From NCBI GenBank assembly GCA_021808995.1, contig JAKBAP010000001.1, forward strand, positions 1-46,260: a DNA stretch of 46,260 bases, given 5' to 3'. A program made the translations under genes and the position numbers. This DNA is from Planctomycetota bacterium. Its GTDB lineage: Bacteria > Planctomycetota > Planctomycetia > Isosphaerales > Isosphaeraceae. Below are positions 7,267-40,364 of the stretch, one piece after another (within the stretch, counting starts at the first letter, position 1; the number at the start of each line of letters is the position of its first letter). The notes below the pieces were generated by a model, which had not been told where the DNA came from, did no database searches, and saw only the letters and a list, made by a program, of their open reading frames with translations.

Positions 7267-7355
7267 GGAGAGGTGGCTGAGTGGTCGATAGCGACGGTTT
7301 GCTAAACCGTTAAACTGGGAAACCGGTTTCGGGGGTTCGAATCCCCCCCTCTCCG
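7267..7355 (+). tRNA. tRNA-Ser (anticodon GCU), class II with long variable arm
   Basis: Hand-folded cloverleaf. Acceptor GGAGAGG/CCTCTCC with discriminator G. D stem GCT/AGC. Anticodon stem ACGGT/ACCGT with loop TTGCTAA (anticodon GCT). Variable arm AAACTGG-GAAA-CCGGTTT, 7 bp. T arm GGGGG-TTCGAAT-CCCCC. CCA not encoded. Confidence 0.95.
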
Positions 7356-7375: not shown

Positions 7376-8842
7376 TCATCCCTTGATCACCCCGACGGGC
7401 CGCAGGCGGGCGACTTTTCGCGAGATACCGGCCCGCTCGACCACGTCGACCACCATGTCGACGTCCTTGTAAGCGTCCGGCTGTTCCTCGGCCAGGCCTT
7501 TCGCGCCGCGAGCCCGGGCGAAGATCCCCAGTTTTTCGAGCTCCTGGTCGATCCGCCGCGAGCCGGCGTGCTTGACGGCGGCCGTTCGGCTCATGCGCCG
7601 GCCGGCGCCGTGGCAGGTGGTGCCGAATGAGTGTTGCATGCTCCCCGGCTCACCCGCCAGGACCCAGCTCGCCGTTCCCATGCTCCCGGGAATGATCACG
7701 GGCTGACCGATCGTGGCATAGGCGGCCGGGACCTCGGGATGGCCGGCGGGAAACGCGCGTGTCGCCCCTTTTCGGTGGACGCAGACGGGCCTCGAAATCC
7801 CGGCGGAGACGGTGTGGTCCTCGATCTTGGCGATGTTATGGGCGACGTCGTAGACCAGGTCGAGCCCGAGCTCCTCCCAGGAGCGCTCGAACACCCCGGC
7901 GAACACGCCTCGCGCCAGGTGGGCGAGCAAGTGCCGGTTGGCCCAGGCGTAATTCGCGGCCGCGCGCATGGCGGCCAGATACGCCTGGCCCTCGGGGCTC
8001 GAGACCGGCGCGCAGGCGAGCTGGCGGTCGGGGAGCTTGAACCCATAGCGCTCGGGAGCTCCCTCAAAGGCAGCCAGATAATCGTCGCACACCTGATAGC
8101 CCAGCCCGCGCGAGCCAGAGTGGATCAGGACGGTGAGCATCCCCTCCTCGAGCCCCATCGCCTGGGCCGCCACTCGATCGTGGACGCGGTCGACCACCTG
8201 CACCTCCAGGAAGTGATTTCCCGAGCCCAGCGTGCCGCACTGGTCGCGGCCACGCAACAGCGCCCGGGCGCTCACCCGGCTGGGGTCGGCCCCTTCGAGA
8301 CAGCCTCCAGCCTCGGTCGCGATCAGGTCGGCGGGGGTTCCGATACCTCGCGCGACGAAGTGGGCGGGACCATCCAGGAGCACCTGCTTGATCTCGGCCT
8401 CCTCAAGGATGAACCTGCCCCCTTGGCCGACGCCGGTCGGAACATGGCGAAAAAGCTCGTCGATCAGCCGCTTGATGGTCCCCTTAACCTCGCTGTAGGC
8501 GATCTTGCTGCGGAGCAGGCGCACACCGCAATTGATGTCGTACCCCACGCCACCGGGCGAGATCACGCCGCCGTCCGCGGGATCGGTGGCGGCGACGCCG
8601 CCGATACAGAATCCATAGCCCCAGTGAATGTCGGGCATTGCCAGGCTGGCCTTCTGGATGCCCGGCAGGGTCGCCACGTTCACGACTTGCTCGAGCGCCT
8701 GGTCTTCCCGCACCGACTGGATCAACTCCGCCGAGGCGAATACCAGCCCGTCGACCCGCATCTCCGCGCGATAGCTCTGGGGAATCCGCCACAGGCACGG
8801 GCCCGCTTGCTCGAGCGGCCCCTCAAATCGATTCCTGGCCAT
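7376..8842 (-). CDS. rtcB: RNA 3'-phosphate/5'-OH ligase RtcB
   Basis: Motifs GGVGYDINCGVR, GSGNHF, HSGSRGLG, CHGAGR. ORF runs to 8983, but ATG at 8842 (MARNRFEGPLEQ) has AAGGAG 7 nt upstream and gives a family-typical 489 aa. Confidence 0.95.
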   Translation of the reverse strand: MARNRFEGPLEQAGPCLWRIPQSYRAEMRVDGLVFASAELIQSVREDQALEQVVNVATLPGIQKASLAMPDIHWGYGFCIGGVAATDPADGGVISPGGVGYDINCGVRLLRSKIAYSEVKGTIKRLIDELFRHVPTGVGQGGRFILEEAEIKQVLLDGPAHFVARGIGTPADLIATEAGGCLEGADPSRVSARALLRGRDQCGTLGSGNHFLEVQVVDRVHDRVAAQAMGLEEGMLTVLIHSGSRGLGYQVCDDYLAAFEGAPERYGFKLPDRQLACAPVSSPEGQAYLAAMRAAANYAWANRHLLAHLARGVFAGVFERSWEELGLDLVYDVAHNIAKIEDHTVSAGISRPVCVHRKGATRAFPAGHPEVPAAYATIGQPVIIPGSMGTASWVLAGEPGSMQHSFGTTCHGAGRRMSRTAAVKHAGSRRIDQELEKLGIFARARGAKGLAEEQPDAYKDVDMVVDVVERAGISRKVARLRPVGVIKG

Positions 8843-9022
8843 CGCGGTCTCCTTGCTCCTGAAGCTCAAGACAAAAATCACGGGCCGATGAAACCCTGGC
8901 CTCGCTACGAAATGGACTGCGATCGAGCCATAAGGTTCGCAAGCCCTCGCGCCATGTCGGCGCTCCCTCTTGGCCTCGGCCATGGTGCGAGCGTGGCCAA
9001 GATCCGCGGAACGGTATCCGTA

Positions 9023-18641: not shown

Positions 18642-19679
18642 ATGTTCGTTGATCGAGTGACCTTGTACGTCAAGGGGGGGACGGGTGGCAACGGCTGCCT
18701 GAGCTTTCGGCGTGAGAAATACGCGCCCCGCGGCGGGCCCAATGGGGGTGATGGGGGTCGCGGGGGTGATATCATCATCCGCGCTGAGATGGGGCTGACC
18801 AACCTGGCCCATCTTTCGCATCAGCGCCACTGGAAGGCCGAGCAAGGCGAGCATGGCGAGGGCTCGGATCGTTTCGGCCGGGGGGCGACCGACCTGATCA
18901 TTCAGGCCGCGATTGGGACCCTGGTCCGCGACCGTGATCGTGGCAACTTGCTCGGTGATCTCCGAGCCGATGGCGAGCAGATCATCGTCGCTCGCGGTGG
19001 GCGAGGGGGGCATGGCAACACGTTTTTCAAATCGTCCACCAACCGCGCCCCACGGCAGCACGAAAAAGGCTTTCCTGGCGAGGAACGCTGGATCACCCTT
19101 GAGCTCAAGGTCATCGCCGATGTCGGGCTTATCGGCCTGCCCAACGCCGGCAAGTCGACCTTGCTCTCGCGGATCTCACGCGCGCATCCGGAAATCGCCG
19201 ATTATCCGTTTACCACCAAGTTCCCCAATCTGGGGACCGTGATCACCCCGGACCGCAGTTTCGTGGTCGCCGACATTCCCGGTCTGATCGAGGGCGCGCA
19301 CCAGGGGCATGGGCTCGGCCATGAATTCCTCCGCCATGTCGAGCGCACGTCACTGCTGGTGCATCTGGTCGAGGCGAGCCCGATCGACGGGACGACGCCT
19401 CTGCAAAATTACCTCGCGATTCGCAACGAGCTCGCCCAGTATAGCGCGGCCCTGGCCGAGCGCCCGGAGCTGGTGGTCCTCACCAAGACCGACGTGCTGG
19501 GGTCGCTGGACGAGGCAACCCTGCTGGCCGAGTCGCTCGGTCGTGACGTGTTCACGATTTCGTCGGTGACGGGGCAGGGGGTTCCGAGGCTGTTGCACGC
19601 GATCATCGATCGACTGTGGGGTCATGAGGACGAGCCGGGGCTCAAGTCGCCGGGCACGCCGGTGGCGGCGGGTGCCTAG
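18642..19679 (+). CDS. obg: GTPase Obg/CgtA
   Basis: MFVDRVTLYVKGGTGGNGCLSFRREKYAPRGGPNGGDGGRGGDI (Obg fold). G motifs GLPNAGKST, DIPGLIEGA, TKTD. Confidence 0.97.
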   Translation: MFVDRVTLYVKGGTGGNGCLSFRREKYAPRGGPNGGDGGRGGDIIIRAEMGLTNLAHLSHQRHWKAEQGEHGEGSDRFGRGATDLIIQAAIGTLVRDRDRGNLLGDLRADGEQIIVARGGRGGHGNTFFKSSTNRAPRQHEKGFPGEERWITLELKVIADVGLIGLPNAGKSTLLSRISRAHPEIADYPFTTKFPNLGTVITPDRSFVVADIPGLIEGAHQGHGLGHEFLRHVERTSLLVHLVEASPIDGTTPLQNYLAIRNELAQYSAALAERPELVVLTKTDVLGSLDEATLLAESLGRDVFTISSVTGQGVPRLLHAIIDRLWGHEDEPGLKSPGTPVAAGA

Positions 19680-19682
19680 ACG

Positions 19683-20447
19683 ATGCCGGCGATCGTGGCC
19701 GACCTGGGTAACAGCCGGCTCAAGCTCGGGCGGGTGGATCAAGACCGCCGCCTGGGCGCGACGGTGAGCCTGCAGCTCGGCGATCCCGAGAGCTGGCGGC
19801 GGGGGCTTGCGGAGCTGGGCATCTCGTCTCCTCGTGAGGCATCGTGGGCGATCTCGTCGGTCAATCCCCCCCTCGCCCGGAGCCTGGCGGGCTTTCTTGA
19901 CCAGGAGGGCGTCCAGGCCTCGTGTTGGTTTGACTCGGCCTCCCAGGTTCCGATGGACATGGACGTGGAGGGGGCCGAGACCGGCGGCGCGGACCGCGCG
20001 CTCGGCGTGCTCGCGGCCCGGTCGCTGGCCGCGCCCGGGCAGCCCGTGCTGGTGGTTTCCTGCGGGACAGCCGTGACCATCGAAAGCGTCGACGACCGCG
20101 GCGTCTGGCGTGGCGGCTCGATCGGGCCAGGACTGGGCGTCTCCGCTCGGGCACTTCATCTGATGACCGCCCAGGTCCCCATCATCGCCATCGACTCGCA
20201 ACCGCCGCCCCGCGGCCGAGGGACCGTCTCCTCGCTCGAGGCCGGGATCTTCTGGGGTCTGGTCGGCGGCGTACGCTTGCTCATCGAGCTCCAATCGGCT
20301 CTTCTAGGCGGCGTGCCCGCTGTCTTCTGGACCGGCGGCGACGCACCGCTCGTCGCCCCCGCCGTCGCGGGGCCGACCGCCAGGCTCACACCCAACCTTG
20401 TCCTTCAGGGGCTCGCCCTGCTCGTACCCCTGGAAACCAACCCCTGA
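19683..20447 (+). CDS. coaX: type III pantothenate kinase
   Basis: DLGNSRLKLG N-terminus, CGTAVTI, GGSIGPGLGVSARALHLMTAQVP. Start is 4 nt after the obg stop. Confidence 0.9.
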   Translation: MPAIVADLGNSRLKLGRVDQDRRLGATVSLQLGDPESWRRGLAELGISSPREASWAISSVNPPLARSLAGFLDQEGVQASCWFDSASQVPMDMDVEGAETGGADRALGVLAARSLAAPGQPVLVVSCGTAVTIESVDDRGVWRGGSIGPGLGVSARALHLMTAQVPIIAIDSQPPPRGRGTVSSLEAGIFWGLVGGVRLLIELQSALLGGVPAVFWTGGDAPLVAPAVAGPTARLTPNLVLQGLALLVPLETNP

Positions 20448-25033: not shown

Positions 25034-26959
25034 TTACCCAATGGGATAAAACGGTGCATGATCAGGCCCCAGTCTGGGCGCTTTCGGAATCCGAGGCAAG
25101 CCGCCGATGGGGACCAGCTTGCCATGGATGAACTTGTAATACGTCCCCGTCGGCGGGACCGGATGCAAGCGCGAGGTCCGGCGGTGCGGATTGCCGGCGA
25201 ACATCACGGCCGTCGCCTTCGAAGGCCTAAATCGCACGTGCCCAGCCAACCCGATCAGCTTGTTCGTGCCCGGCCCGCCAATCAGGGTCGTCTGTCCGAA
25301 CCAGCCATGTTCGAGGCTAAAGCCCGATCCACCGGTGACGTAATTGCGAATCCCATGTCCGCCATCGAGCGTGACCGGGATCGTCACCGAGGGGTCCACC
25401 ACGATGTCATTGTTGGCCCTGCGACCACCAAAGACCACGACCTCGTTCAGGCTCGAGATCGCCGGTTGGGTCGAATCCAGCACGCCGTTGACCGTCACCT
25501 CGATGATGTCGCTTCCGGTCCCCGAGGGGTTCGCGACCTGGTCGACCTGGATCTTGTTCGTCCCCTTGTCGTATCGCGGCAACGGTGTCACGAACAACAC
25601 CGGCCCAACCAGGGCGACCGTCCCCGTGAGGATCGGCCCGACCTGGATCGTGGCCGTGGCGGAATTGCTGGTGGTCGTCAGCGAGGTCGGGATATTCGTG
25701 CTTCCCTGTTGCGGGCCGGTCCCGGTCACGTCGTAGCTCACCTTGTCGGTACCCAGAAAGCCAGGGTTGGGGGTATAGGTAAAGGTCCCGGTCGTGGCGT
25801 TGAAATTCGACACGGTCCCGTGCTGGGGCTGAGACAACAGCGTGTAGCTCAGCGTCGAGGGGGTAGCCGAATTGGGGTATCCGCTTGTTCCCGATAGCGT
25901 CACCGTCGTCGGCGTGTTGAGCTTCGTCGTCGCCGAGACCGCGTTCGCGAACGGCTTGAAATTGATCGGAGGACTGATCGGACCGGCGTACGCCCCCACG
26001 GTCACCACGAACGACTGGCTCACCTGGAGATGGCTCAGGGTGTCGGTCGCCGTCACCGTGATCGTCGACGTCTGGCCCTGGGCCGCCTGGGTCGTATCCA
26101 AGACGAGGACGCCGTTGGGATCCTGCGAGGAGAGCGAGGCCGACGTAATGTTGATCGGGTTTACAGGATAGGAATTCTCTTGCGTCACCGGGTTGGCCTG
26201 GACCGGAACCTGGGTCATCTTGGCCAGAATTGTCTGCCCGGTGAGCATCTGCCCAAAGATCGTATATCCATAGCCGAGGGCGGAGTTGGGCGACCCCGTC
26301 GTGATGAAAAACTGGGTGTCGTTGGTGCCATTCGGCGCGGGGGAGCCAGCGTTGTTCGCGTTGGCCATCGCGAGCTGATCAACGCCGGTGAAGGCGAGCT
26401 GCTGAATGTTTTCATTGGGGAAGGGCGTCCCAGGCTGCCCGCTCGAGCCCGTCCCAGTGCGATTGGGCGCTCCCCCCTGCGCGATATAGTCGGTGGCGTT
26501 GGGGAAACCGCCAAAGATCCGAGTGAAATACTTGTTGGTATACCAACCATCATTGGTGAATGTCTGAATCTCATTGACCGTATTGGGCGTCAGATCCTTG
26601 AAGAGCTGAAACGTCATCGGACCCGAGAAGTTGTTCGAGGTATTCGAGGGATCGGTGTACGAGACATTGACCGTCCAGAACAGCGACCCCCCCGCGATCG
26701 AGGCGGCCACCTCGGGATTGCTCGAGGTCACGGAGAAGGTCTGGGGGTCCGTGAACCCACTCGCCGCCAGGAGCGGGACGGTATAACCCTGCTTGGACGG
26801 AACCGTCAAGTTGGTGATCGGCTGGAGCGAGGCGTTCGAACCGGTCATGAGCCGGCGATCCTCGAGCCGCTCAAGCCCGAGCCTCGAACTCACCCGACGC
26901 CGCGGCAGGGTCGCCCCAACCTTCGTGAATGATCCAAACTGATTCAGACGTCGCCACAT
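25034..26959 (-). CDS. cyclophilin-type peptidyl-prolyl isomerase domain + Ig/cadherin-like repeats + Gly-rich C-terminal region; N-terminal LE-x-LE-x-R-x-L motif
   Basis: The track ORF extends to 27892, but that part is antisense to the kinase gene. ATG at 26959 (MWRRLNQFGSF...; GGAGA upstream) fits, with 27028 as an alternative. PPIase signature FTRIFGGF..YIAQGG..GTG..QLAMANA..NGTNDTQFFITTG..YTIFGQM. Then T/S-rich Ig-like modules (FTYTPNPGFLGTDKVSYDV). Confidence 0.85.
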   Translation of the reverse strand: MWRRLNQFGSFTKVGATLPRRRVSSRLGLERLEDRRLMTGSNASLQPITNLTVPSKQGYTVPLLAASGFTDPQTFSVTSSNPEVAASIAGGSLFWTVNVSYTDPSNTSNNFSGPMTFQLFKDLTPNTVNEIQTFTNDGWYTNKYFTRIFGGFPNATDYIAQGGAPNRTGTGSSGQPGTPFPNENIQQLAFTGVDQLAMANANNAGSPAPNGTNDTQFFITTGSPNSALGYGYTIFGQMLTGQTILAKMTQVPVQANPVTQENSYPVNPINITSASLSSQDPNGVLVLDTTQAAQGQTSTITVTATDTLSHLQVSQSFVVTVGAYAGPISPPINFKPFANAVSATTKLNTPTTVTLSGTSGYPNSATPSTLSYTLLSQPQHGTVSNFNATTGTFTYTPNPGFLGTDKVSYDVTGTGPQQGSTNIPTSLTTTSNSATATIQVGPILTGTVALVGPVLFVTPLPRYDKGTNKIQVDQVANPSGTGSDIIEVTVNGVLDSTQPAISSLNEVVVFGGRRANNDIVVDPSVTIPVTLDGGHGIRNYVTGGSGFSLEHGWFGQTTLIGGPGTNKLIGLAGHVRFRPSKATAVMFAGNPHRRTSRLHPVPPTGTYYKFIHGKLVPIGGLPRIPKAPRLGPDHAPFYPIG

Positions 26960-31093: not shown

Positions 31094-32266
31094 TCACCCC
31101 CCCCGCGCGAGCCGAGCGAGCGCCTCCGCCGGGTTTCCCGACTCGACGCGATCCAGAGCATCCACAATACACTGTACATGCGATCCGCGAAACGGCACGG
31201 CCGCGAAAGCGGGGGGCGGGTCGCCCACGATCCGTTCGGCGATCAGGCGGGCGAGCTCGCCGAGACCCTGTCCGCGCTCCGCGGAGATCGCCAGCTCCAC
31301 CCCGACCTGGTCGAGGGACCACGCTGGCGGTAGGTCGCTCTTGTTGGCGACCACGATCCGAGCTTGGTGGGGTTGACTCAGCAGGTGAAAATCACTGGGC
31401 TCAAGGGGCATGGAACCGTCCAGGACGAGCAGGACCAGGTCCGCGTGAGCGCGGGCGGCCCTCGCCCGCTCGATTCCTTGGCGTTCGATGGAATCGATGG
31501 CTTCTCGTTCGCCGGCGGTGTCGACGAGCTCGATCGGCCATCCCTCGAGCGCGAGCTCACAGGTCACCACGTCGCGGGTGGTGCCTGGCCGGTGGTCGAC
31601 GAGTGCTCGCTCTCGCCCGATGATCGCGTTCATGAGGCGGCTTTTGCCCACGTTGGGTCGACCGGCCAATGCGACGGTCCATCCCCGGGCAAGCCTGAGC
31701 CCGATACCCGAGCGCTGGATCAGGGTCTTGAGCCGCCCGACCAGCGCCTCGCGATCAGCGACCACGAGCCGGGCGATCGCCGCGATTTCGCGGTCGAGAG
31801 CGCCATCGGCCTGGTCGAGCAAGATCGCCGCCGTCTTGAGCGTGGCCGCGAGGGGCAGATCCTCAAGGGCCTGCGTGGCGATCACGCTCTGGGCCGTCGT
31901 GGCCGCGACGAGACCGGGCTCGGCCCGCGCTGCCCCGGCCTGGATCAGCGTGTGCATCACCGCGAGCGGGGCCGCCCGTCCGCCGTGGCACTGGATCTCA
32001 AGGATTCCCTGGTCATCGAGGATCTCGACGACCACCTGATCACCCACGCCGCAAGCTCCCAGGCGGCCGACCCTCGGCCGGCCTGGTCGCATTCGCGCCA
32101 GGCCGATCCCCGACGCCGGCCGAAACAACCGATCGACCATCGCGAGCGAGCCTGGTCCCCACACCCGGACCACGGCGATCGCGCCCGCGCCCGGCGGCGT
32201 GATCACCGCCGCGCGCGTCGACCCTGGAATCTCACTCTCGGCTGGATGCGGTTTCTCGGTGTCCAC
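31094..32266 (-). CDS. MnmE/TrmE-family GTPase, atypical (no C-terminal C-I-G-K motif)
   Basis: 390 aa, GTG start. N-domain GAIAVVRVWGPGS ... ILEIQCHGG ... ARAEPG. G domain GRPNVGKS, GTTRD, DTAG, NKSD. Ends ...NPAEALARLARGG. Confidence 0.8.
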   Translation of the reverse strand: MDTEKPHPAESEIPGSTRAAVITPPGAGAIAVVRVWGPGSLAMVDRLFRPASGIGLARMRPGRPRVGRLGACGVGDQVVVEILDDQGILEIQCHGGRAAPLAVMHTLIQAGAARAEPGLVAATTAQSVIATQALEDLPLAATLKTAAILLDQADGALDREIAAIARLVVADREALVGRLKTLIQRSGIGLRLARGWTVALAGRPNVGKSRLMNAIIGRERALVDHRPGTTRDVVTCELALEGWPIELVDTAGEREAIDSIERQGIERARAARAHADLVLLVLDGSMPLEPSDFHLLSQPHQARIVVANKSDLPPAWSLDQVGVELAISAERGQGLGELARLIAERIVGDPPPAFAAVPFRGSHVQCIVDALDRVESGNPAEALARLARGG

Positions 32267-32306
32267 CAGACTCGCTTCACGCTCGACGGCCCAACATGTT
32301 CACGCC

Positions 32307-33089
32307 TTAATTGTATCCCTTGTCGGCGGGGTTGAGAGCGCCCGAGGCATTCAAGAGCCCGTTCACCACCATGATGACCCGGCCCGAGCCCAGGGTGCCG
32401 GGGCGCGGATGGGCGTCCGGAATAAACTGAAACCGGACATCGCCCAGGCCCATGTTCCAGTTGTTGACGCTGCTGGGCGCGTTCCCGTTCGCCAGCGGGC
32501 TTATGAGCGTCCCATTGCTATTGAGATAGTTGCCCGGGAAATTTCCCGAACCTGGGATCGCCGTGCCGGCCCCGGTAAACATCGTGCCCGAGCTCGCGTC
32601 ATGCACCCAGTTCAGGTGGGTGGGCAAGCCGTGGACCTCGGTCCCGGTCGGACCGGAGAGATCAAGCACGATGCTCGCGCCCGTGTTCAGGGCTGCCCCG
32701 CTCAGGAAATTGACCACGCCCGTCACGGTTCCACTCGGACTCGAGGGCTCGAAGATGAAGAACTGAAAATGGAGTCGACGGGAAAAGTTGCTGGTCGACG
32801 GCTTGCCATAGCCATGGATCGAGATCGATTGGGTGCTGAATCGGCCGGGGCCGACCGTGTAATAGCCGATGGATCGCGCTGTGAACGACTCACGCTTGAC
32901 CTCGGCCGCCGTTGGCTGAGGTGTCCCCGGCGGATACAGGATCGGCACGAATTGCTGAACGTCGAGCGCGGGATAGTGGCGGCCAGGAAGAGCTGGCCCG
33001 AGCGACGACATGAGCTCACGGTCCTCAAGCCCCTCGAGCCTGGGCCGTAGGCGCTTCGATCGGCGATCGCGCGGCGTTTCGATGCTCAT
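32307..33089 (-). CDS. uncharacterised family, tandem paralog 1 (260 aa)
   Basis: ATG 33089 with GGAAGGAG 7 nt upstream. N-terminus MSIETPRDRRSKRLRPRLEGLEDRELMSS. Shared blocks with the two upstream genes (EVKRESFTARSIGYYTVGPGRFS..SISIHGYG; ...GSGRVIMVVNGLLN). Confidence 0.85.
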   Translation of the reverse strand: MSIETPRDRRSKRLRPRLEGLEDRELMSSLGPALPGRHYPALDVQQFVPILYPPGTPQPTAAEVKRESFTARSIGYYTVGPGRFSTQSISIHGYGKPSTSNFSRRLHFQFFIFEPSSPSGTVTGVVNFLSGAALNTGASIVLDLSGPTGTEVHGLPTHLNWVHDASSGTMFTGAGTAIPGSGNFPGNYLNSNGTLISPLANGNAPSSVNNWNMGLGDVRFQFIPDAHPRPGTLGSGRVIMVVNGLLNASGALNPADKGYN

Positions 33090-33126
33090 TGATCGACTCC
33101 TTCCATACCACCCATGCCGCCGGTCC

Positions 33127-33972
33127 TCACGAATAATACTTAGAGACCGCGCTCGCCATCTGGTTGTAATTCAAGAGCCCCTGGAACGTGACGATCGCCT
33201 GTCCGGAACCCATGGTCCCGGGCTGGGCGTGGGGCGACGGCCGATAGACGATGTCAAGCGTGCCCGTCCCCTGCGTGAATCCAGCGGGAGCGATGAATGG
33301 ACCGCCACTGTTGGTGTCGAAGGTCCAAGACAACTGCCTTGGCAGCGGGCCGTTGGCCGCCGGGTCGCCCTGCGCTCCATGAAGGTCCAGGACCAAGAGC
33401 CCGCCAGACTGAAGATAGTTTTCCGGGAAGAGCCCCGCGATGCCGGTGGTCTGGCCAGCGTAGGGGTCGCCAGGCGTCGGCGTGGCGTTCGGGTCGGCGG
33501 GGGGAAAGAGGGCGATCTGGAACTTTCCCTTGAGAAAGGCGTTTGAACCGCCATCGACACCATAGAAATGGATCGTGCTCGCGCGGTCGCTAAACCGCGG
33601 TGTACCGATCGTGTAATGGCCGATCCAGCGAGCGGTGAAGGTTTCCCGCTTGATTTCCCGAGGCGAGGGGGTCATCGGAGTGGCCGAGCCGGGACCATAG
33701 AGCAGGTTCGCCGACTGGGCGATGACCCTGGGATTCAGGAACGGCCCCTGGGGTTGCGACCCGTAAAAGCCATGATGGCTCCCGACCCTCGCCTGGGCGA
33801 TTTCAGCCTGGAGCGCCGAGACGTAAGCCGGGACTCGAGCGGTTTGGTGAGTGATCCCGATCCGAGAGGGCAGATCGCGCTTTTCCAGCGGTTCGAGCGC
33901 CGGCCGCGCGGCGGCCCGTGCGCGCCGGCGCGGTCTTTCGCCTTTGATCCAGCCGTCGTCGACGAAACCCAT
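33127..33972 (-). CDS. uncharacterised family, tandem paralog 2 (281 aa)
   Basis: ATG 33972, 13 nt after the upstream stop (GAGGGG overlaps that stop). RPRRRARAAARPALEPLEKRDLPS. EIKRETFTARWIGHYTIGTPRFSDRASTIHFYG. LFPPADPNATPTPGDPYAGQ. GSGQAIVTFQGLLN. Confidence 0.85.
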   Translation of the reverse strand: MGFVDDGWIKGERPRRRARAAARPALEPLEKRDLPSRIGITHQTARVPAYVSALQAEIAQARVGSHHGFYGSQPQGPFLNPRVIAQSANLLYGPGSATPMTPSPREIKRETFTARWIGHYTIGTPRFSDRASTIHFYGVDGGSNAFLKGKFQIALFPPADPNATPTPGDPYAGQTTGIAGLFPENYLQSGGLLVLDLHGAQGDPAANGPLPRQLSWTFDTNSGGPFIAPAGFTQGTGTLDIVYRPSPHAQPGTMGSGQAIVTFQGLLNYNQMASAVSKYYS

Positions 33973-33985
33973 GGCCGCCTGCCCC

Positions 33986-34957
33986 TCAGTTGATTCCCTG
34001 GAAGAGCGCGTTCAGCGTCCCGCTCTCATGCACGAGCCCCTGAATGCGAACCACCACTGTCCCCGACTGGCTCGCCCCGGCACGCAAGCGACCATCGGGC
34101 TTATAAAAGACCTCGATCAAGCCCATCCCCTGGGTATAGGCGACCGCCCCCCCCGCGCCCCCCTGAACGGCGATCGGTTGACCCGTGGAAGGGTTGGTCT
34201 GAACCGCCGGCGTGGTCGCGTAGGCGGGATTGGTGAACGCCCCCGCCCCCGTCGTGTCGAGCGTGAAACCCAGCCGCGAGGGAAGCCCATGCTGGAGCGC
34301 CTGGGGCGCGTTGCTGGGCACGCCCGGCAGATTGTTGACATCAAAGAGGATCTGATCGGAGGTTTGCAGGTAATTGCCCGGGATGATCGAGGAGATCCCG
34401 GCGATCTGGCCCGCGACGGGGTCGAGGGTGGTCGGCGTCGCCGAGGGGTCGGCTGGGGGGAACAAGAGCAACTGCGCCCGGCCTTGCAAGAACCAGTTCG
34501 AGGCCACGCTTCGGCCATCGCTATAGATATGGATCGTGGCCGACTGATTGGAAAACCGGGGCGCTCCCACCGAGTAGCGACCGGTGTAAGTGGCCCAGAA
34601 GGTCTGCCTACGAAGCTCGTGGGGAGTTGGCTGGGCCGAGGCGTAGGTCCCCGCCGGAAACACCTGCCCACCAATCGCGATCGGCTGGGTCGTAGTGACC
34701 GGGGCGTAAAGCGTGCTCGCCAGTGAATCGATATAGTTTTGGTTGACCCACCGAGGCGTGGCCGCCGCCGACTGAGCATTCTGGGCCGCCGGCCGAGCGC
34801 CCGCGAGCACCAGATTGAGCGCCGGCACGTTGACGCGCGGATGATCCACCCGGCCCATGATATGCAACCCCGACGGCAGCTCGCGGTGCTCGAGCCGCTC
34901 GATATCAGGTCGGCATCCCCGTCCGAGGGCTTCCCGTCGCCGGCTTCCCGCTCGCAT
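33986..34957 (-). CDS. uncharacterised family, tandem paralog 3 (323 aa from ATG 34957; track ORF starts at GTG 34996)
   Basis: GAGAGGAG sits 8-9 nt upstream of ATG 34957. MRAGSRRREALGRGCRPDIERLEHRELPS. ELRRQTFWATYTGRYSVGAPRFSNQSATIHIYS. LFPPADPSATPTTLDPVAGQ. QSGTVVVRIQGLVH. Confidence 0.85.
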   Translation of the reverse strand: MRAGSRRREALGRGCRPDIERLEHRELPSGLHIMGRVDHPRVNVPALNLVLAGARPAAQNAQSAAATPRWVNQNYIDSLASTLYAPVTTTQPIAIGGQVFPAGTYASAQPTPHELRRQTFWATYTGRYSVGAPRFSNQSATIHIYSDGRSVASNWFLQGRAQLLLFPPADPSATPTTLDPVAGQIAGISSIIPGNYLQTSDQILFDVNNLPGVPSNAPQALQHGLPSRLGFTLDTTGAGAFTNPAYATTPAVQTNPSTGQPIAVQGGAGGAVAYTQGMGLIEVFYKPDGRLRAGASQSGTVVVRIQGLVHESGTLNALFQGIN

Positions 34958-35013
34958 CAACCCACTCCTCTCACCCCAAACCCCCGTCCCGCCCACGCCC
35001 GAGCCCTGGTATT

Positions 35014-36678
35014 TCAGGGAAGAATCCGCTCGCCCACCGCCGTGTTCAAATCCAGGATCGCGCGGCGATGACGAACCATCGCGTCACGATACGCCCGAAC
35101 CACGTCGTTGAAATCTTGCTGGGCCGCCAGATACTCAAGGGCGCTGGTGTTGCCGCCCCGGAACCGGTCGAGGGCCTTGTCGCGGGCACTCCGCGAGGTC
35201 GGAATGATCTCGGTTCGCAGCCGTTCGACGGCCGCCCGGCTTTGCTCGAGCTCTTGCTCGGCGTTCAAGACATCGCTCACGACTGTCCGCTCCTGGCTCG
35301 CCATCTGGATCTCGGTCTGCGGAATGTTGATCTTGGCCCGCGCGACGTTCCCCTGGTTGCGATTAAAAAGCGGAACCGTCGCGGTGACGCCCAGCGTCCA
35401 CGAATAGGCGCTCGGAACCCCGAGATAGGTGTTGTTTTGCAGGGTATAGGGCTGATAAAGCAGATAGACGTCGGGATAGCCGTTAGCCTTCGCGAGCTTG
35501 AGGTCGGCGTTGGCCCGTCGAATGGCGATCCGGGCCGCGGCCAGATCCGGGCGCCGCTCAAGCCCCTTGGCCACCAGGTCGGTCCGCGACAACGGAGCCG
35601 ACTGCAAGAGCCCCACCGAGTCCCGCACCCGAATGTCGTCAACCCGATCCAGCGGCATGTTCAGGATCAAGGCCAACGCGCGATTGGCCTTGGACCGCGC
35701 GATGATCGCCTCTTGCAACTGGAGCTCGGACTTCATCACGTTGGCCTTCATCGTCAGCACATCCGACTGCTGGACCTGATCCCCCTTATAGAGGAGCTCG
35801 GTGAGCTTGAGCACCTTGCGAATACCCGTCAGATAGAGCTCGCTGAACTGCACCGTGAGACCGGCGGCGACCACGTCCTCGTAAAAGGTATAAAGATTGT
35901 CGATCTGATTGCGCACCGCGTCCTGGAGCTGGGCCTCGGTCACGTACTTGGCGGCCTTGGCCGATTCGATCCGCGCCAGCCTCTTGAACGTGACATCCAG
36001 AGGAAGGTTCAGGTTGATATCACTCTGGGGTGGCCCGCCCGGGCGCAGGAACGAGAAATGACCGTAGGGAATGAGCTGGGTGTCCGCGTAAAAGACCGGG
36101 TTGGCGCGCAAGCCCGCCGTGAGGAGGTCGGCCTGGGCCATCGGGATCTCCAGGCGGGCCGCCTGGAGGTCGAGGTTTTGCTTGACCACGATCTCGATCG
36201 CCGTGTCCAGGTTCATCCCGTTTTCGGGTCCAAACATGACGAAATCGGCCGGCAAGTCGAGCTCGCCATACTGAGGGACCTGCGCCTCCGTCGCGATCTG
36301 AGTGATCGCCTGCTGCGCGCCCTGGGTCCGAAAGACAGGCATTCCCGGGCTGGCGAAGGCGGCGGCCGGGACATGGGTCCCCTGCGGTCCAGGCCGGCCG
36401 CTCAAGGGGGCGTTCGACGGAGTGTCGTACGACGGGAAATTGGCCGAGCCCAGCGGCTGGCCGACCATGCTGGCCCCTCCGGCCGCGCCCGGAGGCGCTC
36501 CCACGTCAAACTGCGGCCCCTGCGCATGGGCCGCCGTCGATGTCAGCCAGACCGCGATAATCAGGGCGCACACTCGACTCGCCTTGGCATGAAGCCACGC
36601 TCGTCGCCCGCCCCCATGGCTCGATCCGTTCCTGGTCCACGACCTGGAACCGAGCCGTTCCCCATCCTGACGATCCAT
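35014..36678 (-). CDS. TolC-family outer-membrane efflux/secretion factor (OMF)
   Basis: 554 aa. AGGAGG 8 nt upstream of ATG 36678. Signal sequence ...RVCALIIAVWLTSTAAHA. OEP-type repeats (LDTAIEIVVKQNLDLQAARLEIPMAQADLLTAGLRANP...; second repeat ...RPDLAAARIAIRRANADLKLAKA...). Confidence 0.88.
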   Translation of the reverse strand: MDRQDGERLGSRSWTRNGSSHGGGRRAWLHAKASRVCALIIAVWLTSTAAHAQGPQFDVGAPPGAAGGASMVGQPLGSANFPSYDTPSNAPLSGRPGPQGTHVPAAAFASPGMPVFRTQGAQQAITQIATEAQVPQYGELDLPADFVMFGPENGMNLDTAIEIVVKQNLDLQAARLEIPMAQADLLTAGLRANPVFYADTQLIPYGHFSFLRPGGPPQSDINLNLPLDVTFKRLARIESAKAAKYVTEAQLQDAVRNQIDNLYTFYEDVVAAGLTVQFSELYLTGIRKVLKLTELLYKGDQVQQSDVLTMKANVMKSELQLQEAIIARSKANRALALILNMPLDRVDDIRVRDSVGLLQSAPLSRTDLVAKGLERRPDLAAARIAIRRANADLKLAKANGYPDVYLLYQPYTLQNNTYLGVPSAYSWTLGVTATVPLFNRNQGNVARAKINIPQTEIQMASQERTVVSDVLNAEQELEQSRAAVERLRTEIIPTSRSARDKALDRFRGGNTSALEYLAAQQDFNDVVRAYRDAMVRHRRAILDLNTAVGERILP

Positions 36679-37097
36679 TCCGATCGACCTCCTGTCGTTC
36701 GGACGCCCATTCGGCCGACTGCCTGTTCCGGGGCCGACGTCCTGTCAGCCTGAAACACGATGAACCCATCATCTCGACGCCGGCGAACAAGCCCGACGAC
36801 CGTGGTCCGCGATTCGCGACCATGCGCCAAGAATGGCGCGAAGACATGGTGAGAAATGATGGTTTACTTCGTATACCGAATCCCGCGAGAGACGTGAAGG
36901 CCGATTTACAATGAAAATCAAAGGGACCGTCAAGATCCGCCGATCGGCGGCTTGTTGCAAAACCGGTGGAAACGCCGTCTAATACGGTTGAATGAAAGGA
37001 AGCCATGGCGATCCGTGACCGGCCGCGGCCGCCGAGGTTTCCCGTACCCCGCCGCGCCGGCGGGCGCGAGCACCCCACCCCAAGGAAATCCTCGACC

Positions 37098-37625
37098 ATG
37101 GCCGACGATCCGGCGCGTTACCCTAGACGTCAACTGATCACGGCCGCGGGCACCCTCGGCCTGGGCCTGGTCGCGACCGGATCAGCCGCCGCGCGGGAAG
37201 AGAGTGATTCACCCCGATCCAGGCGCATCAGCGAGGAAGCCGTCGTCGGAACCAGCGTCGTCAGGTCGCCCGATTACAGCGAAGCGAAAAAATACTCCCT
37301 GATCCACGTCCTCGAGCATGTCTTCCACCAGGACGAGGTCGTTGACTCCGGCTTTCCAGTCACCCGGACCAAGGACTTCACGATCAGTCCCGCCGTCAAG
37401 CTTGCCCTGGTCACGATGAGCGGCTTCGAGGTCTGGCTCGGCACGACGGAACAAGAGTACTACGCCGCCACGTCCCGGCTCGGGGTCCATGCCGCCCTTG
37501 AGGCCGATTTCGCCCGCCATGCGCTCACGGTCAAGGCCCGCGCGAACTACCGGTTCTGGGGAAAAGTCGACTGCGAGTGGACCTGGCGATGCCACGTCGT
37601 GGTCCACTGCCATGGCGAAGCCTGA
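37098..37625 (+). CDS. small Tat-exported hypothetical protein, paralog A (175 aa)
   Basis: Track ORF begins at 37005. ATG 37098 aligns residue-for-residue with paralog B. MADDPARYPRRQLITAAGTLGLGLVATGSAAA (RR motif, h-region, AxA), mature part ...SRRISEEAVVG...FPVTRTKDF...MSGFEVWLGTTEQEY...CEWTWRCHVVVHCHGEA. Confidence 0.8.
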   Translation: MADDPARYPRRQLITAAGTLGLGLVATGSAAAREESDSPRSRRISEEAVVGTSVVRSPDYSEAKKYSLIHVLEHVFHQDEVVDSGFPVTRTKDFTISPAVKLALVTMSGFEVWLGTTEQEYYAATSRLGVHAALEADFARHALTVKARANYRFWGKVDCEWTWRCHVVVHCHGEA

Positions 37626-37706: not shown

Positions 37707-38237
37707 ATGTCCAGCGATCCGTCGAAAGACAGCCGGCGAGATCTCCTCGCGGCGGCAAGCGCCCTCGGCCTGGGGGCGTTCCTGTCCGGGAACACCCAGG
37801 CGGCCCAGGACCGAACGCAATGGGTGCGATCCCGGAAAATCAGCGAGGAGGTCGTCGTCGGCAACAGCATCGCCAAGGCCCCCAATTACAAGGAAGGGGC
37901 GAAACTCTCCCTGATCCAGGTGATCGAGCACGTCTTCAAGCAAGACGAGGACACCGCCGCCGGCTACCCCGTGACCAGAACCAAGGAATTCAAGGTCAAG
38001 CCCACGACCAAGCTAGCGGTGGCGACACTGAGCGGTTTCGAGTTCTGGTTTGGCACCCCCGAGCAAGAATACATGTTCGCCAAGTCGCGCGAGGGAGTGA
38101 ACGCCGCCCTCGAGGCGGATCTCTCCCATGGCTCACTGACCCTCAAGCTCCGCGCGAACGCCAGGCGATCCAACCGCATCGACTACGAATGGACCTGGAG
38201 ATGCCACGTCGTGATCCAATGCTTTGGCGATGCGTGA
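37707..38237 (+). CDS. small Tat-exported hypothetical protein, paralog B (176 aa)
   Basis: MSSDPSKDSRRDLLAAASALGLGAFLSGNTQAA, then ...SRKISEEVVVG...YPVTRTKEF...LSGFEFWFGTPEQEY...YEWTWRCHVVIQCFGDA. The 3' ends of the two genes are also similar at nucleotide level (tggacctgg.gatgccacgtcgtg.tcca). Confidence 0.85.
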   Translation: MSSDPSKDSRRDLLAAASALGLGAFLSGNTQAAQDRTQWVRSRKISEEVVVGNSIAKAPNYKEGAKLSLIQVIEHVFKQDEDTAAGYPVTRTKEFKVKPTTKLAVATLSGFEFWFGTPEQEYMFAKSREGVNAALEADLSHGSLTLKLRANARRSNRIDYEWTWRCHVVIQCFGDA

Positions 38238-38251
38238 ACACCACCCCGAAC

Positions 38252-40021
38252 TCACGGCGCGTGCTTCAGGGCGCGGCGGACCAGTTCGGGAAGATAGCTC
38301 ACCGGAACCGTTCCCTGCGCCAGCACCGCGTCGTGAAACTGCTTCAGATTGAACCGAGCCCCAAGCTCGCCCTGGATCTCCTGCCGCAGCCGGTGAAACG
38401 CGACCCGGCCGGCGAAATACGTCGAAAGCTGACACGAGGTCTGCTTGGCCCGGATAATCTTGCCGATGGCCTCCCCCTCGGTTTGAAACGCGCGCTGCTG
38501 GAGCAGCTCCATCGCCTCGGCCTCGGTCATCGAGCCCACGTGCATCCGATGGTCCAGGATCGCGTTCACGACCGCTCGCAAGTAAAACTTGAGCTGCTGA
38601 AGCCGTAACGCGGGGTCGCCGGCGCCAAATCCCTGGTCCAACATCATCTGCTCGGTATAGACCGCCCAGCCCTCGGCGAAAACGCCCGAGGAGAGCACCC
38701 GGCGGATAAACGAGGGGCAGCGATTGGAATGCTCGAGCTGCACGTAATGGCCAGGATACGCTTCATGAATGGTCAAGATTTTGAGCATCCGTCGGTTATA
38801 CTCGCGCAGGAAGCTCTGAACCCGATCCGGCCGCCAATCGCGAGGCGGTGGGGAAAGCGCGTACTCGCTCGAGCCCCGAGGATCAAGCGGAGGGGCGGGG
38901 TTGAGATAGGCGACCGCGTTGCCCCGCATGAACTCCGGCATCGCGAGAATCCGGCACTGGTCGGGCTCGTGAAGGGTGACGATCCCATGGGAACGAATGA
39001 ATTCCTTGATCTCGTCAACCGTCCCCTTGATATCGGCGACCAGATGGTCGGCCTCGCCATGATCGTCGCCGATCTTGCTCAGCACCCGCGTGACCAGGCG
39101 CCGCCGACCCTCCGCGTCGTCCAAGGGGAACGGCTCCGACGGGAAATAGACCGCGAAAAGCTGCCGCGCGATCACCGCCATCTCGGTCTCGACCCGGGTC
39201 GCCTCGCGCTCAGCCTCGCCTAAGAGCTCGCCAGCCTCGATCCCGGAATCGAGCTCTAAGGCCAGCTTGCGTTCAAACAGGGGCCGGCCGATCCGCCACT
39301 CGCCACTCGCCCGGGGCAAGAGATCCTGCTTGAGATAAACCAGGTACTCGCCAAGCGCGTGCTTCACCCCGGCCGCCCGCTCCGCGAAAAGCCGATTCTC
39401 GACACCAACTCCCGCGATCGTCTGAAGCTCTCCTGAATAAAACGCGATCGCCCCCTCGGTCTGACGGATCGCCGTCTCGACCCGCACCCGCGAAGGATTC
39501 TTCAATGTCGCCCGCGCCACGTCCACGACCCCAGGAATTCGCTCCATTCGCTCGAGCACGTTCCCGACATTGATCGCCATCGGCAACGAAGACTGCGTGA
39601 GCGGCAAATACACGCTCTCACTCAAATAGTCGCCATAAATCCGTGGATCATCCTCGAAGGGATGAAACGTCTCGGCCAGCCAGATCGAGCGAATCAGGTG
39701 CTTCTCGAATATCTCAAGGTCAATCTGGCCGTCACGGGTCAGCTTGGAATAATCAACCTGCTTGCGCAACCCATCCAGCATCGCTCGATCATGCTCAATC
39801 CGCTTCGCGCGCGCGGTCGGCGAAAGATCGTCAAGCCGAGCGTCATACGCATGTTCACCCATACGCGTGGCCATGAGCGGCTCAAGCCGAAACGCCTCCT
39901 GAAGATAATCCCGAAAAACCCGGTCGAGCTTCTGGTCCTCGGATGCGGGCGCTTGAGCCGGGCCGAGGAGCATCATGCACGCAAGTGCCAGGAATCCGGA
40001 CCGCGTCGACATTTTAGGCAT
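38252..40021 (-). CDS. DUF885 family protein (putative metallopeptidase-like), secreted
   Basis: Track ORF extends to 40267. ATG 40021 gives MPKMSTRSGFLALACMMLLGPAQAPA (signal peptide). HEAYPGHYVQ motif typical of DUF885. Confidence 0.88.
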   Translation of the reverse strand: MPKMSTRSGFLALACMMLLGPAQAPASEDQKLDRVFRDYLQEAFRLEPLMATRMGEHAYDARLDDLSPTARAKRIEHDRAMLDGLRKQVDYSKLTRDGQIDLEIFEKHLIRSIWLAETFHPFEDDPRIYGDYLSESVYLPLTQSSLPMAINVGNVLERMERIPGVVDVARATLKNPSRVRVETAIRQTEGAIAFYSGELQTIAGVGVENRLFAERAAGVKHALGEYLVYLKQDLLPRASGEWRIGRPLFERKLALELDSGIEAGELLGEAEREATRVETEMAVIARQLFAVYFPSEPFPLDDAEGRRRLVTRVLSKIGDDHGEADHLVADIKGTVDEIKEFIRSHGIVTLHEPDQCRILAMPEFMRGNAVAYLNPAPPLDPRGSSEYALSPPPRDWRPDRVQSFLREYNRRMLKILTIHEAYPGHYVQLEHSNRCPSFIRRVLSSGVFAEGWAVYTEQMMLDQGFGAGDPALRLQQLKFYLRAVVNAILDHRMHVGSMTEAEAMELLQQRAFQTEGEAIGKIIRAKQTSCQLSTYFAGRVAFHRLRQEIQGELGARFNLKQFHDAVLAQGTVPVSYLPELVRRALKHAP

Positions 40022-40364
40022 GCCTTGAGAATTTCCCGTAGGACCGTGACGAAGGACGTCCAGCCACGGCAAGTGAAAAGGGTTGGGAATACCGAGCCTG
40101 ATCCCGGGCGGGGGTCTCGCGAGGCGATCACGCGCGTGAGGGTGGAGTTTCCGGCTGTGTTCCGCCGACGATTGGGGTATGATAGAGTGTCGGGGAGTGG
40201 AACGAAAGGGTCTTGCGAAAGCGGGCCGACACCCCCGCGTTGCGAACGAGCCTGGCGCGTGTGACAATAAAACCGAACTTCTGGCCGTCCGACGCCGCGG
40301 ATGGAATCGAGCGTTTCGATTCGTCTCGCGACTCCTCGGACGACGTCTTGGTCTAGACCGTAGA

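Follow-up and report, generated by a model that had tools for sequence, protein, structure and literature searches.

Three paralogs of an undescribed family encoded behind a TolC/CzcC-like outer-membrane factor gene in Isosphaeraceae, probable accessory subunits of Czc-type channels

Tripartite efflux systems rank with the most thoroughly studied machines of the envelope, and very few additional components are known, among them CusF, AcrZ, and YbjP. CusF is a protein of about 90 residues with a 5-stranded OB-like fold. Here, we describe a locus of a Planctomycetota bacterium in which a gene encoding an outer-membrane factor (OMF) is followed by three members of an unannotated protein family. 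The locus lies within a 46-kb stretch of DNA (46,260 nucleotides, referred to as the window).

The first-pass annotation of this DNA had described a tight string of five same-strand genes, and all five ORFs were recovered on the minus strand in the ORF listing of the window (Table 1). The gaps that it had reported (56, 13, 37, and 40 nt in the order OMF, par3, par2, par1, GTPase) and the Shine-Dalgarno (SD)-like sites, one for each paralog (GAGAGGAG, GAGGGG, and GGAAGGAG), are evident from the sequence itself. For par3, the mechanical ORF list begins at the GTG codon at position 34996; the ATG start of the first-pass annotation (Table 1) is preceded by a better SD site (GAGAGGAG, 7 nt upstream) and agrees with the N termini of the orthologs. 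Inspection of the junction sequences revealed no terminator-like site in any junction. The OMF gene had been noted to lack an adjacent membrane-fusion, RND, or ABC partner, and a profile search extended this observation, as no RND, MFP, or ABC partner gene was found anywhere in the window. The cassette lacks both the CusA/CzcA-family pump gene and the MFP gene of an HME-RND operon of the CzcCBA/CusCBA type.

Table 1. Features of the locus, with positions numbered along the window
Feature	Position	Strand	Basis
TolC/CzcC-like OMF, 554 aa	35014..36678	-	ORF + PF02321
Paralog 3 (par3-type), 323 aa from ATG 34957	33986..34957	-	ORF, SD, orthologous group
Paralog 2 (par2-type), 281 aa	33127..33972	-	ORF, homologs, AF2 model
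Paralog 1 (par1-type), 260 aa	32307..33089	-	ORF, ortholog position, own cluster
MnmE-like GTPase, 390 aa	31094..32266	-	TrmE_N + MMR_HSR1 domains
par3 N-terminal motif IERLEHRELPS, basic stretch before	34871..34903	-	Motif scan
par2 N-terminal motif LEPLEKRDLPS, RPRRRARAAARP before	33865..33897	-	Motif scan
par1 N-terminal motif LEGLEDRELMS, RDRRSKRLRPR before	33006..33038	-	Motif scan

The product of the first gene matched the Pfam profile PF02321 (E value of 4.6e-49) over two stretches that correspond to two OEP repeats, the better of which aligned residues 367-549 with profile positions 3-187 of 187. These repeats are preceded by a Sec-type signal peptide (..IIAVWLTSTAAHA/QG), in which a hydrophobic segment at residues 36-54 is followed by AHA/QG, and by a conserved Pro/Gly-rich extension of ~100 aa. 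Since a lipobox Cys is absent, the OMF is not a NodT-type lipoprotein. Its scores fell below every curated NCBIfam OMF cutoff (best matches: NodT, 63.6 versus 210 bits; TolC, 49.8 versus 225 bits; IhpA, 43.5 versus 650 bits), and it did not classify with a named subfamily (NodT, TolC-T1SS, CusC, or IhpA). Orthologs of the OMF are 52-80% identical (dN/dS of 0.17), and wherever the contig extends far enough, the OMF gene is the first gene of the cassette.

The three proteins encoded downstream are mutually 34-39% identical over a full-length alignment with 56 invariant columns, a similarity far beyond chance, and the alignment blocks quoted in the first-pass annotation are indeed present. The view that the family is unrecognised also stood, as the three paralogs yielded no Pfam or NCBIfam match even at E<=1 and no PDB sequence match. 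In particular, neither Pfam nor NCBIfam profiles of the biotin-lipoyl, beta-barrel, or hairpin domains of membrane fusion proteins (HlyD/RND_mfp) matched. For par2, 245 database homologs were retrieved, every one of them unnamed and devoid of a Pfam domain. Family members fall into four discrete orthologous groups: par1, par2, par3, and a single-copy group, D. The par3 orthologs (40-75% identical) form their own group and occupy the first position after the OMF gene in nearly all loci, and the par1 orthologs (53-87% identical) form their own cluster and occupy the third position in the cassettes. These observations are best explained by an undescribed family that is specific to the Isosphaeraceae lineage.

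The members share one architecture, in which a basic N terminus is followed by a low-complexity linker and a predicted 8-stranded soluble beta-barrel of ~190 residues. The N terminus of all members carries the basic motif [LVI]ExLExRxL[LPM][ST] ("LExLExRxLLS"), the E, E, and R positions of which are conserved in all four groups. A 19-residue Kyte-Doolittle scan detected no Sec/Tat-type hydrophobic h-region at the N termini of the paralogs; the maximum hydropathy values, 0.87-1.38, were located inside the barrel. A secreted-type cyclophilin+Ig protein that is unrelated to the family bears the same motif, as do >100 homologs of that protein. Together with the gene context, this shared motif suggests that the paralogs may be exported, and a motif without a hydrophobic core may mark an undescribed protein-targeting route in Isosphaeraceae.

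The barrel itself was confidently predicted. In the AF2 model of par2, residues 80-270 make up the 8-stranded beta-barrel core (pLDDT of about 90), and two independent AF2 models, of par2 and of one D-type member, converged on the same barrel of 8 long strands with a core pLDDT of 90-95. The top-probability Foldseek matches were soluble barrels (PodA, 0.97; DUF3224, 0.96; AtDIR6, 0.90; AbyU/PyrI4, 0.75-0.84), and the probability for membrane barrels was <=0.16. No Foldseek match reached E<=1e-3, the best E values being 3e-3 to 6e-3 with TM-scores of 0.40-0.50, which is below significance. The predicted soluble barrel thus bears a weak resemblance to the dirigent, PodA, and DUF3224 barrels.

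The order OMF-par3-par2-par1 was found in every one of the 24 GTDB Isosphaeraceae/Planctomycetota loci that reach far enough, with a permutation to OMF-2-1-3 in one of them (L007), and the linkage of paralogs and OMF, on which the first-pass annotation had built its proposal, extends to about 51 of the 57 assessable loci across the whole family. Two of the outcomes that the first-pass annotation had named as refuting its proposal, a match to a characterised domain and an unconserved OMF linkage, thus did not occur. The surroundings of the cassette are otherwise unconserved, the upstream genes being QueC, L27, Obg, and CoaX. One locus (L021) contains a second OMF gene (41% identical) with its own family member, arranged head-to-head with the trio. 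The conserved unit is best explained as a putative four-gene operon that consists of a CzcC/TolC-type OMF gene and three distinct family members. The paralogs had been described as a diversifying family; this does not hold, as the triplication is ancient and the three fixed orthologous groups are stable lineages under purifying selection, with dN/dS values of 0.20, 0.13, and 0.10 for par3, par2, and par1, respectively.

Nor does the fifth gene belong to the module. Its product contains the TrmE_N (PF10396, 42.4 bits against a cutoff of 29.8) and MMR_HSR1 (PF01926, 82.3 bits) domains and scored below the MnmE equivalog cutoffs of NCBIfam (164 versus 380 bits and 153 versus 253 bits), with MnmE_helical reaching 12 bits against a cutoff of 40. 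The protein is ~55 residues short for MnmE and ends in ...ARLARGG, without the C-terminal Cys motif of MnmE. Given the low scores and the missing residues, the original label of an atypical MnmE-like protein was fair. The GTPase gene (dN/dS of 0.39) adjoins the cassette in only 4 of the 24 loci (L001, L019, L022, and L024), all from close relatives that also have a neighbouring kinase in common, and is a lineage-specific bystander.

The single-copy relatives place the family in a functional context. The D-type member is the last, fourth gene of RND-MFP-OMF-member operons (L027, L028, L044-L046, L052, L053, L055, L057, and L059), the pumps of which pass the CusA/CzcA cutoff (TIGR00914, 830-862 bits versus 701) and the adaptors of which best match CzcB/NccB. 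Metal-related neighbours include an ArsR regulator and a CusF_Ec+SCO1 fusion (copper genes) at L029, another CusF_Ec+SCO1 fusion at L061, a CDF transporter at L027, and a His-rich ORF bearing the motif at L053. An adjacent OMF gene is absent at the deepest branches of the family, L067 (a tandem pair), L068, and L069, and at L061, L062, and L065. Collectively, these data show that the home context of the family is heavy-metal tripartite efflux. The occurrence of single-copy members in CusA/CzcA-type operons suits an accessory function in tripartite efflux better than protein export or surface display, and the export or surface module envisaged in the first-pass annotation is therefore not favoured. 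Since there is no pump in the window, nor within 10 kb of the cassette at 21 of the 24 trio loci, the trio is linked to efflux by descent and not directly.

Gene adjacency alone is equally compatible with a chaperone, a regulator, or a cargo. The paralogs might be periplasmic substrate or metal chaperones, comparable to CusF in CusCFBA, with the barrel handing a metal ion or a small ligand to a pump or channel and the three paralogs providing three specificities. Besides the efflux operons and the CusF_Ec+SCO1 and ArsR neighbours described above, several features would suit such a role: in the nearest fold analogs (PodA, dirigent, AbyU, and AbmU), small ligands are bound inside the barrel or between subunits, each of the three trio lineages has retained a His in the 'TIH' strand, and the D-type members have a conserved 'LH.D.Q' and Asp/Asn-rich loops. 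However, the four groups have no conserved His, Cys, or Met position in common; the only universal residues of the barrel are one Asp and one Tyr, and Cys hardly occurs at all. Neither CusF_Ec (PF11604) nor any other Pfam profile matched at E<=1. Moreover, the trio cassette encodes no pump that such chaperones could supply, and the strict co-inheritance and fixed order of the trio suggest a complex and not three independent specificities. We therefore consider a chaperone function unlikely.

The proposal that the adjacent OMF serves to export the paralogs as cargo or surface proteins, with the non-classical N-terminal motif as the secretion signal, appears very unlikely to us, even though the N terminus is strictly conserved without a Sec/Tat h-region, is common to the secreted-type cyclophilin+Ig protein, and is encoded next to an OMF gene nearly always. 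Where full systems are present, they comprise an HME-RND pump, a transporter class that is not known to transport folded proteins, and neither an ABC nor a T1SS partner was found. Type I secretion features (RTX/GG repeats and HemolysinCabind) gave no match in the paralogs, C-terminal secretion features are lacking, and no ABC/MFP gene is adjacent. Variable surface proteins would not be expected to show such strong purifying selection or such fixed orthologous groups either, and the motif-bearing cyclophilin gene has no OMF linkage. The highest-probability Foldseek analogs being enzymes or dirigent proteins, and several deep branches of the family being devoid of an OMF, one could also picture the barrel as loosely tied to the OMF, either as a catalyst of the dirigent, Diels-Alderase, or PodA type with an exported small molecule as its substrate or as a periplasmic sensor that controls the operon. 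Yet the similarity in fold does not reach significance, the family as a whole has conserved no catalytic-type set of residues, and neither biosynthetic genes nor two-component or ECF regulators are consistently nearby, which renders an enzyme or regulator extremely unlikely.

We are fairly confident that the paralogs constitute a functional partner of the OMF, and they probably represent extracytoplasmic accessory subunits of Czc-type OMF channels that were triplicated in a pump-less cassette, by a mechanism that we infer as follows. The N-terminal motif would serve as a targeting signal specific to the lineage and direct the export of the paralogs, which would bind the cognate trimeric OMF at its periplasmic or outer-membrane-proximal side. 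The cassette of the window may go back to an OMF-plus-accessory pair that was duplicated to a site away from its pump, after which an ancient triplication of the accessory gene would have yielded three non-redundant lineages, and the OMF would work with pumps whose genes lie elsewhere, as does the product of the orphan tolC of E. coli. In the simplest arrangement, the three paralogs would form a 1:1:1 hetero-oligomer on the OMF trimer, and the member of single-copy systems a homo-oligomer; this level of detail on oligomers and docking is possible but doubtful. A bolder proposal, which we regard as rather unlikely as a whole, is that of a previously unrecognised class of OMF-docking subunits, present as a homotrimer in CzcA-CzcB-OMF systems and as an obligate par1/par2/par3 heterotrimer in pump-less cassettes. 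Such a trimer would act at the periplasmic end of the channel, as a cap, a gate, or an extension. The basic 'LExLExRxLLS' N terminus would then represent a new signal for export or sorting that works independently of a signal peptide and is used by Isosphaeraceae for many extracytoplasmic proteins.

The family comprises hundreds of sequence clusters and is unannotated anywhere. Its genes almost always follow an OMF gene directly, be it singly in heavy-metal RND operons or as a fixed trio in cassettes that lack a pump. It would justify a new Pfam or InterPro domain entry. If its members are physical partners of the channel, they would add a new part to tripartite efflux machines, in a phylum with an unusual and poorly understood envelope. 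The ideas of a channel partner and of a targeting route are both directly testable in cultivable relatives.

In terms of fold, the AOC-barrel-like proteins (dirigent, allene oxide cyclase, the pyocyanin demethylase PodA, DUF3224, and the Diels-Alderases AbyU/PyrI4/AbmU) have the same 8-stranded antiparallel soluble barrel as that predicted for the family, at a sequence identity of 8-15% and with no profile match. Unlike them, the family has an added N-terminal targeting-like motif, a linker, and helices, and its genomic context is efflux and not secondary metabolism. The trimer analogy with the dirigent, AOC, and PodA barrels draws on what we take to be their oligomeric states and serves as a lead only.

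In terms of gene context, the single-copy relatives resemble CusCFBA, likewise an HME-type RND tripartite system in which a further small, soluble beta-barrel protein has its gene next to that of the OMF. However, the family has no sequence or profile similarity to CusF, its predicted barrel is larger (8 strands, ~190 residues), and it has no conserved Met/His/Trp metal site; the gene order also differs, being RND-MFP-OMF-X, and the version in the window has three copies and no pump. The OMF of the window shares with the CzcCBA/TolC-type OMFs the two-repeat OEP architecture and the signal peptide and, like E. coli TolC, is encoded away from any pump, whereas its conserved ~100-aa Pro/Gly-rich N-terminal extension and the members of the new family that always follow it set it apart from both CzcCBA and orphan TolC. 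Finally, E. coli YbjP is reportedly a TolC-binding accessory lipoprotein. The paralogs differ from it in having neither a lipobox nor a Cys, in their unrelated fold, and in being encoded in an operon with the OMF; the concept, by a likeness that is functional speculation, would be the same, namely, a small extracytoplasmic associate of the OMF trimer that is neither pump nor adaptor.

The minus strand of the window between positions 31094 and 36678 carries five consecutive open reading frames (ORFs), whose coordinates proved to be exactly those of the first-pass annotation, as did the intergenic gaps of 56, 13, 37 and 40 nt and the SD-like sequences, all legible directly in the DNA. The leading gene encodes an outer-membrane factor (OMF) that belongs to the OEP family, yet scored below all curated subfamily cutoffs of NCBIfam. 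The three paralogs behind it (par3, par2 and par1) aligned end to end with 34 to 39% identity and 56 invariant columns. Pfam and NCBIfam scans of these proteins returned nothing meaningful, the matches to NPCBM, HicB and SH3_9 at E values of about 0.1 to 0.2 being noise, and a PDB sequence-profile search gave no match, which upheld the earlier claim that they form an unrecognised family. None of the junctions of the five genes contained a terminator-like site; the minus strand has a single such site, within the coding sequence of par1, and the number of sites overall equalled that expected from shuffling. Upstream of the OMF gene, no riboswitch or other known RNA was found, and the 46-kb window encodes no RND pump or MFP adaptor partner. 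Rfam matched just one feature of the window, a tRNA gene immediately adjoining an RtcB RNA ligase gene.

Coordinates of the features discussed, in the window and in related loci (handles beginning with L)
Feature	Location	Strand	Remarks
OMF	window 35014..36678	-	554 aa; two OEP repeats (PF02321, E=4.6e-49); normal signal peptide
par3	window 33986..34957	-	323-336 aa
par2	window 33127..33972	-	281 aa
par1	window 32307..33089	-	260 aa
MnmE-like GTPase	window 31094..32266	-	390 aa; last of the five ORFs
Tandem paralogous gene a	window 37005-37625	+	divergent from OMF
Tandem paralogous gene b	window 37707-38237	+	divergent from OMF
DUF885 protein	window 38252-40267	-	
tRNA	window 7267-7355	+	
RtcB RNA ligase	window 7376-8983	-	
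Obg and CoaX	window 18642-20447	+	
Cyclophilin-type PPIase	window 25034-26959	-	Big_9/Cadherin-like domains
DUF885 protein	L027:12974-14710	-	
OMF + single D-type member	L021:4460-6992	-	
OMF + trio cassette	L021:7142-11704	+	head to head with the preceding pair
Member beside CusF_Ec+SCO1/SenC fusion	L029:3703-5236		
Member beside CusF_Ec+SCO1/SenC fusion	L061:1582-2631		
Two tandem members	L067:1456-3056	+	3-kb contig
His-rich ORF	L053:1199-1550	-	~117 aa

A scan of GTDB species genomes yielded 24 related loci, all from Isosphaeraceae, Isosphaerales or Planctomycetota MAGs, with which the window proteins were compared by tblastn. The order OMF, par3, par2, par1 was repeated in every locus reaching far enough; it was permuted in one (L007, OMF-2-1-3), and four incomplete loci (L008, L011, L015 and L023) were consistent with it. 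The proposed linkage of the paralogs to the OMF gene is thus conserved in relatives. Each paralog was 40 to 87% identical to its own ortholog versus only about 26 to 38% to the other two paralogs, and 73 family sequences clustered into four discrete groups, namely par1, par2, par3 and a single-copy group, D. Relative to the closest relative, L001, dN/dS was 0.17 for OMF, 0.20 for par3, 0.13 for par2 and 0.10 for par1. Because the copies fall into orthologous groups of their own and show low dN/dS, the triplication is ancient and each copy has been maintained; the values of 0.10 to 0.20 rule out diversifying selection on OMF and the paralogs, so that the earlier description of a diversifying paralog family has to be replaced by that of three fixed orthologous groups. 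The four-gene unit is conserved and under purifying selection. In ten loci (L004, L006, L010, L012, L016, L017, L019, L021, L022 and L024), tblastn apparently split OMF and family genes among several frames, a pattern across 'MFD' MAG assemblies that resembles the effect of indel errors in long reads more than true pseudogenes.

Nothing else around the cassette was conserved in the 24 loci. The genes upstream of it in about 12 loci were considered as hidden transporter partners and rejected on their identities (QueC, L27, Obg and CoaX). In about 12 related genomes the cassette comes directly after Obg and CoaX (a type III pantothenate kinase), which here lie about 15 kb from it; this lineage has therefore undergone rearrangement of the region. 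The MnmE-like GTPase had been counted with the string as one module, a grouping that did not hold: it adjoins the cassette in only 4 of the 24 loci (L001, L019, L022 and L024), all of which also share a convergent Ser/Thr kinase, and its dN/dS against L001 (0.39) is higher than that of the neighbouring genes, indicating more relaxed constraint. It is a lineage-specific neighbour and no component of the cassette. Being about 55 residues shorter than MnmE, below the equivalog cutoffs and equipped with a weak helical domain and an atypical C-terminus, it may be a diverged paralog instead of the housekeeping MnmE. On the other side of the cassette, the two tandem paralogous genes divergent from OMF encode proteins with Tat-like signals (RRQLITAAGTLGLGL.. 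and RRDLLAAASALGLGA..) and a common C-terminal 'EWTWRCHVV..C.G.A' block, neither with a Pfam hit; they were rejected as part of the system, as tblastn placed them beside the cassette in no related locus. In the window as in L027, a DUF885 protein is encoded within a few kb of OMF and family genes, and in L027 it is followed by a CDF cation-efflux gene; this proximity may be coincidence or residual synteny.

Beyond the trio, a par2 homolog search returned 245 clusters, none of them named or carrying a Pfam domain, and a profile search across 1.84 billion representatives returned 345 clusters, all of single-domain proteins of 200 to 350 aa, the architecture being unchanged in distant members. 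An OEP gene lies immediately upstream of the member in L025 and L026 and also precedes it in L030; in L029 the order is member, then OEP, and in L027 and L028 the member is the last gene of an RND, MFP, OEP, member array. Another 35 loci came from scanning metagenomes with the D-type alignment; mapped by HMM/BLAST, these showed the order RND, MFP, OMF, member wherever the contig was long enough (L044-L046, L052, L053, L055, L057 and L059). The pumps of these D-type operons scored 830 to 862 bits against a curated CusA/CzcA family cutoff of 701, and the adaptors matched CzcB/NccB best; the single-copy branch belongs to CusA/CzcA-type efflux operons. Once three artefacts from merged stop-to-stop ORFs had been corrected, OMF was directly upstream in 49 of the 57 assessable loci, directly downstream in one and 1 kb upstream in one, the exceptions without an adjoining OMF being L061, L062 and L065 and the deepest branches L067, L068 and L069. 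Linkage to OMF is thus family-wide. Of the 24 trio loci, 21 had no pump gene within 10 kb of the cassette. One locus, L021, carries both types, with a D-type pair whose second OMF (41% identical) has its own single family member; matches between two homolog hit lists suggest that such co-location recurs in other genomes. In one minor subfamily, the members have a copper-homeostasis context: both L029, which also has an ArsR-type regulator, and L061 place the member beside a CusF_Ec+SCO1/SenC fusion. The L067 contig holds two very divergent members in tandem and no OMF, next to a weak PEP-CTERM-domain protein, so tandem duplication of the family has happened more than once.

AlphaFold2 models of par2 and one D-type member, built from different alignments, both showed eight long antiparallel strands with a core pLDDT of 90 to 95, preceded by a disordered N-terminus and linker. 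The high-probability Foldseek hits were all soluble 8-stranded barrels, including pyocyanin demethylase PodA (0.97), DUF3224 (0.96), the dirigent protein AtDIR6 (0.90) and the Diels-Alderases AbyU, PyrI4 and AbmU (0.75-0.84). Because soluble barrels scored high and the membrane barrels OmpA, OmpX, OmpW and Ail, rejected as fold assignment, reached at most 0.16, the family is predicted to adopt a soluble AOC-barrel-like fold, a resemblance at TM-scores of 0.40 to 0.50 with no hit at E ≤ 1e-3 for either model against the PDB. Dirigent proteins, allene oxide cyclase and PodA all assemble as homotrimers. Analogy with them suggests that a single-copy member may likewise be homotrimeric and that the three fixed paralogs may join into a heterotrimer, in keeping with the trimeric OMF.

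All family members open with a basic segment and then the motif [LVI]ExLExRxL[LPM][ST]. Just eleven columns are conserved across all four groups, and the E, E and R of this motif supply three of them. With no hydrophobic h-region behind it, the motif does not qualify as a Sec or a Tat signal. The cyclophilin-type PPIase of the window, unrelated to the family, begins with 'LERLEDRRLMT' and likewise lacks a hydrophobic signal; more than 100 of its homologs retain the motif, none having a signal peptide in its place. This shared N-terminus suggests an undescribed targeting signal in Isosphaeraceae, which we infer to be lineage specific; a literature search found no publication on the motif or the family. 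An ORF in L053, divergent from the HME-RND operon (CusA/CzcA-CzcB-OMF-member), also encodes the motif, followed by a His-rich sequence (HVEHAKVHHAEVEMH..GGGHH), and could be a periplasmic metal-binding protein or spurious.

Our preferred reading is that the paralogs would be exported and act with OMF as accessory subunits. The window cassette would then be a derivative without a pump, whose accessory gene has given rise to three nonredundant subunits and whose OMF serves pumps encoded elsewhere; that the three form a hetero-oligomer, and how they might dock, is a more tentative proposal, possible but on the doubtful side. The main rival, a CusF-like metal or ligand chaperone, draws on the operon context and the copper-gene neighbours, but we consider it unlikely given that the groups share no conserved H, C or M ligand and that trio cassettes occur without a pump. 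The first-pass annotation proposed an export or surface module, in which the paralogs would be cargo or surface proteins, and the odd N-terminus would fit such a role; the RND context, the missing ABC/T1SS partners and the strong conservation of the paralogs nevertheless make it improbable. Least supported of all, and very improbable, is a role as enzyme or regulator.

Compared with known systems, the window cassette lacks the defining features of a CzcCBA/CusCBA operon, because it contains neither pump nor adaptor. The paralogs fall outside CusF, MFP, T1SS substrates and Sec/Tat proteins, and they show only resemblance to AOC-type barrels; we know of no precedent for the fixed trio. Most alike in working would be CusCFBA, in which a tripartite-efflux OMF is combined with an extra periplasmic component, the extra component here being itself an undescribed family. 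Collectively, the cassette does not amount to a new kind of machine; what it adds is a new component, well supported and testable, together with a targeting motif that may also be new.
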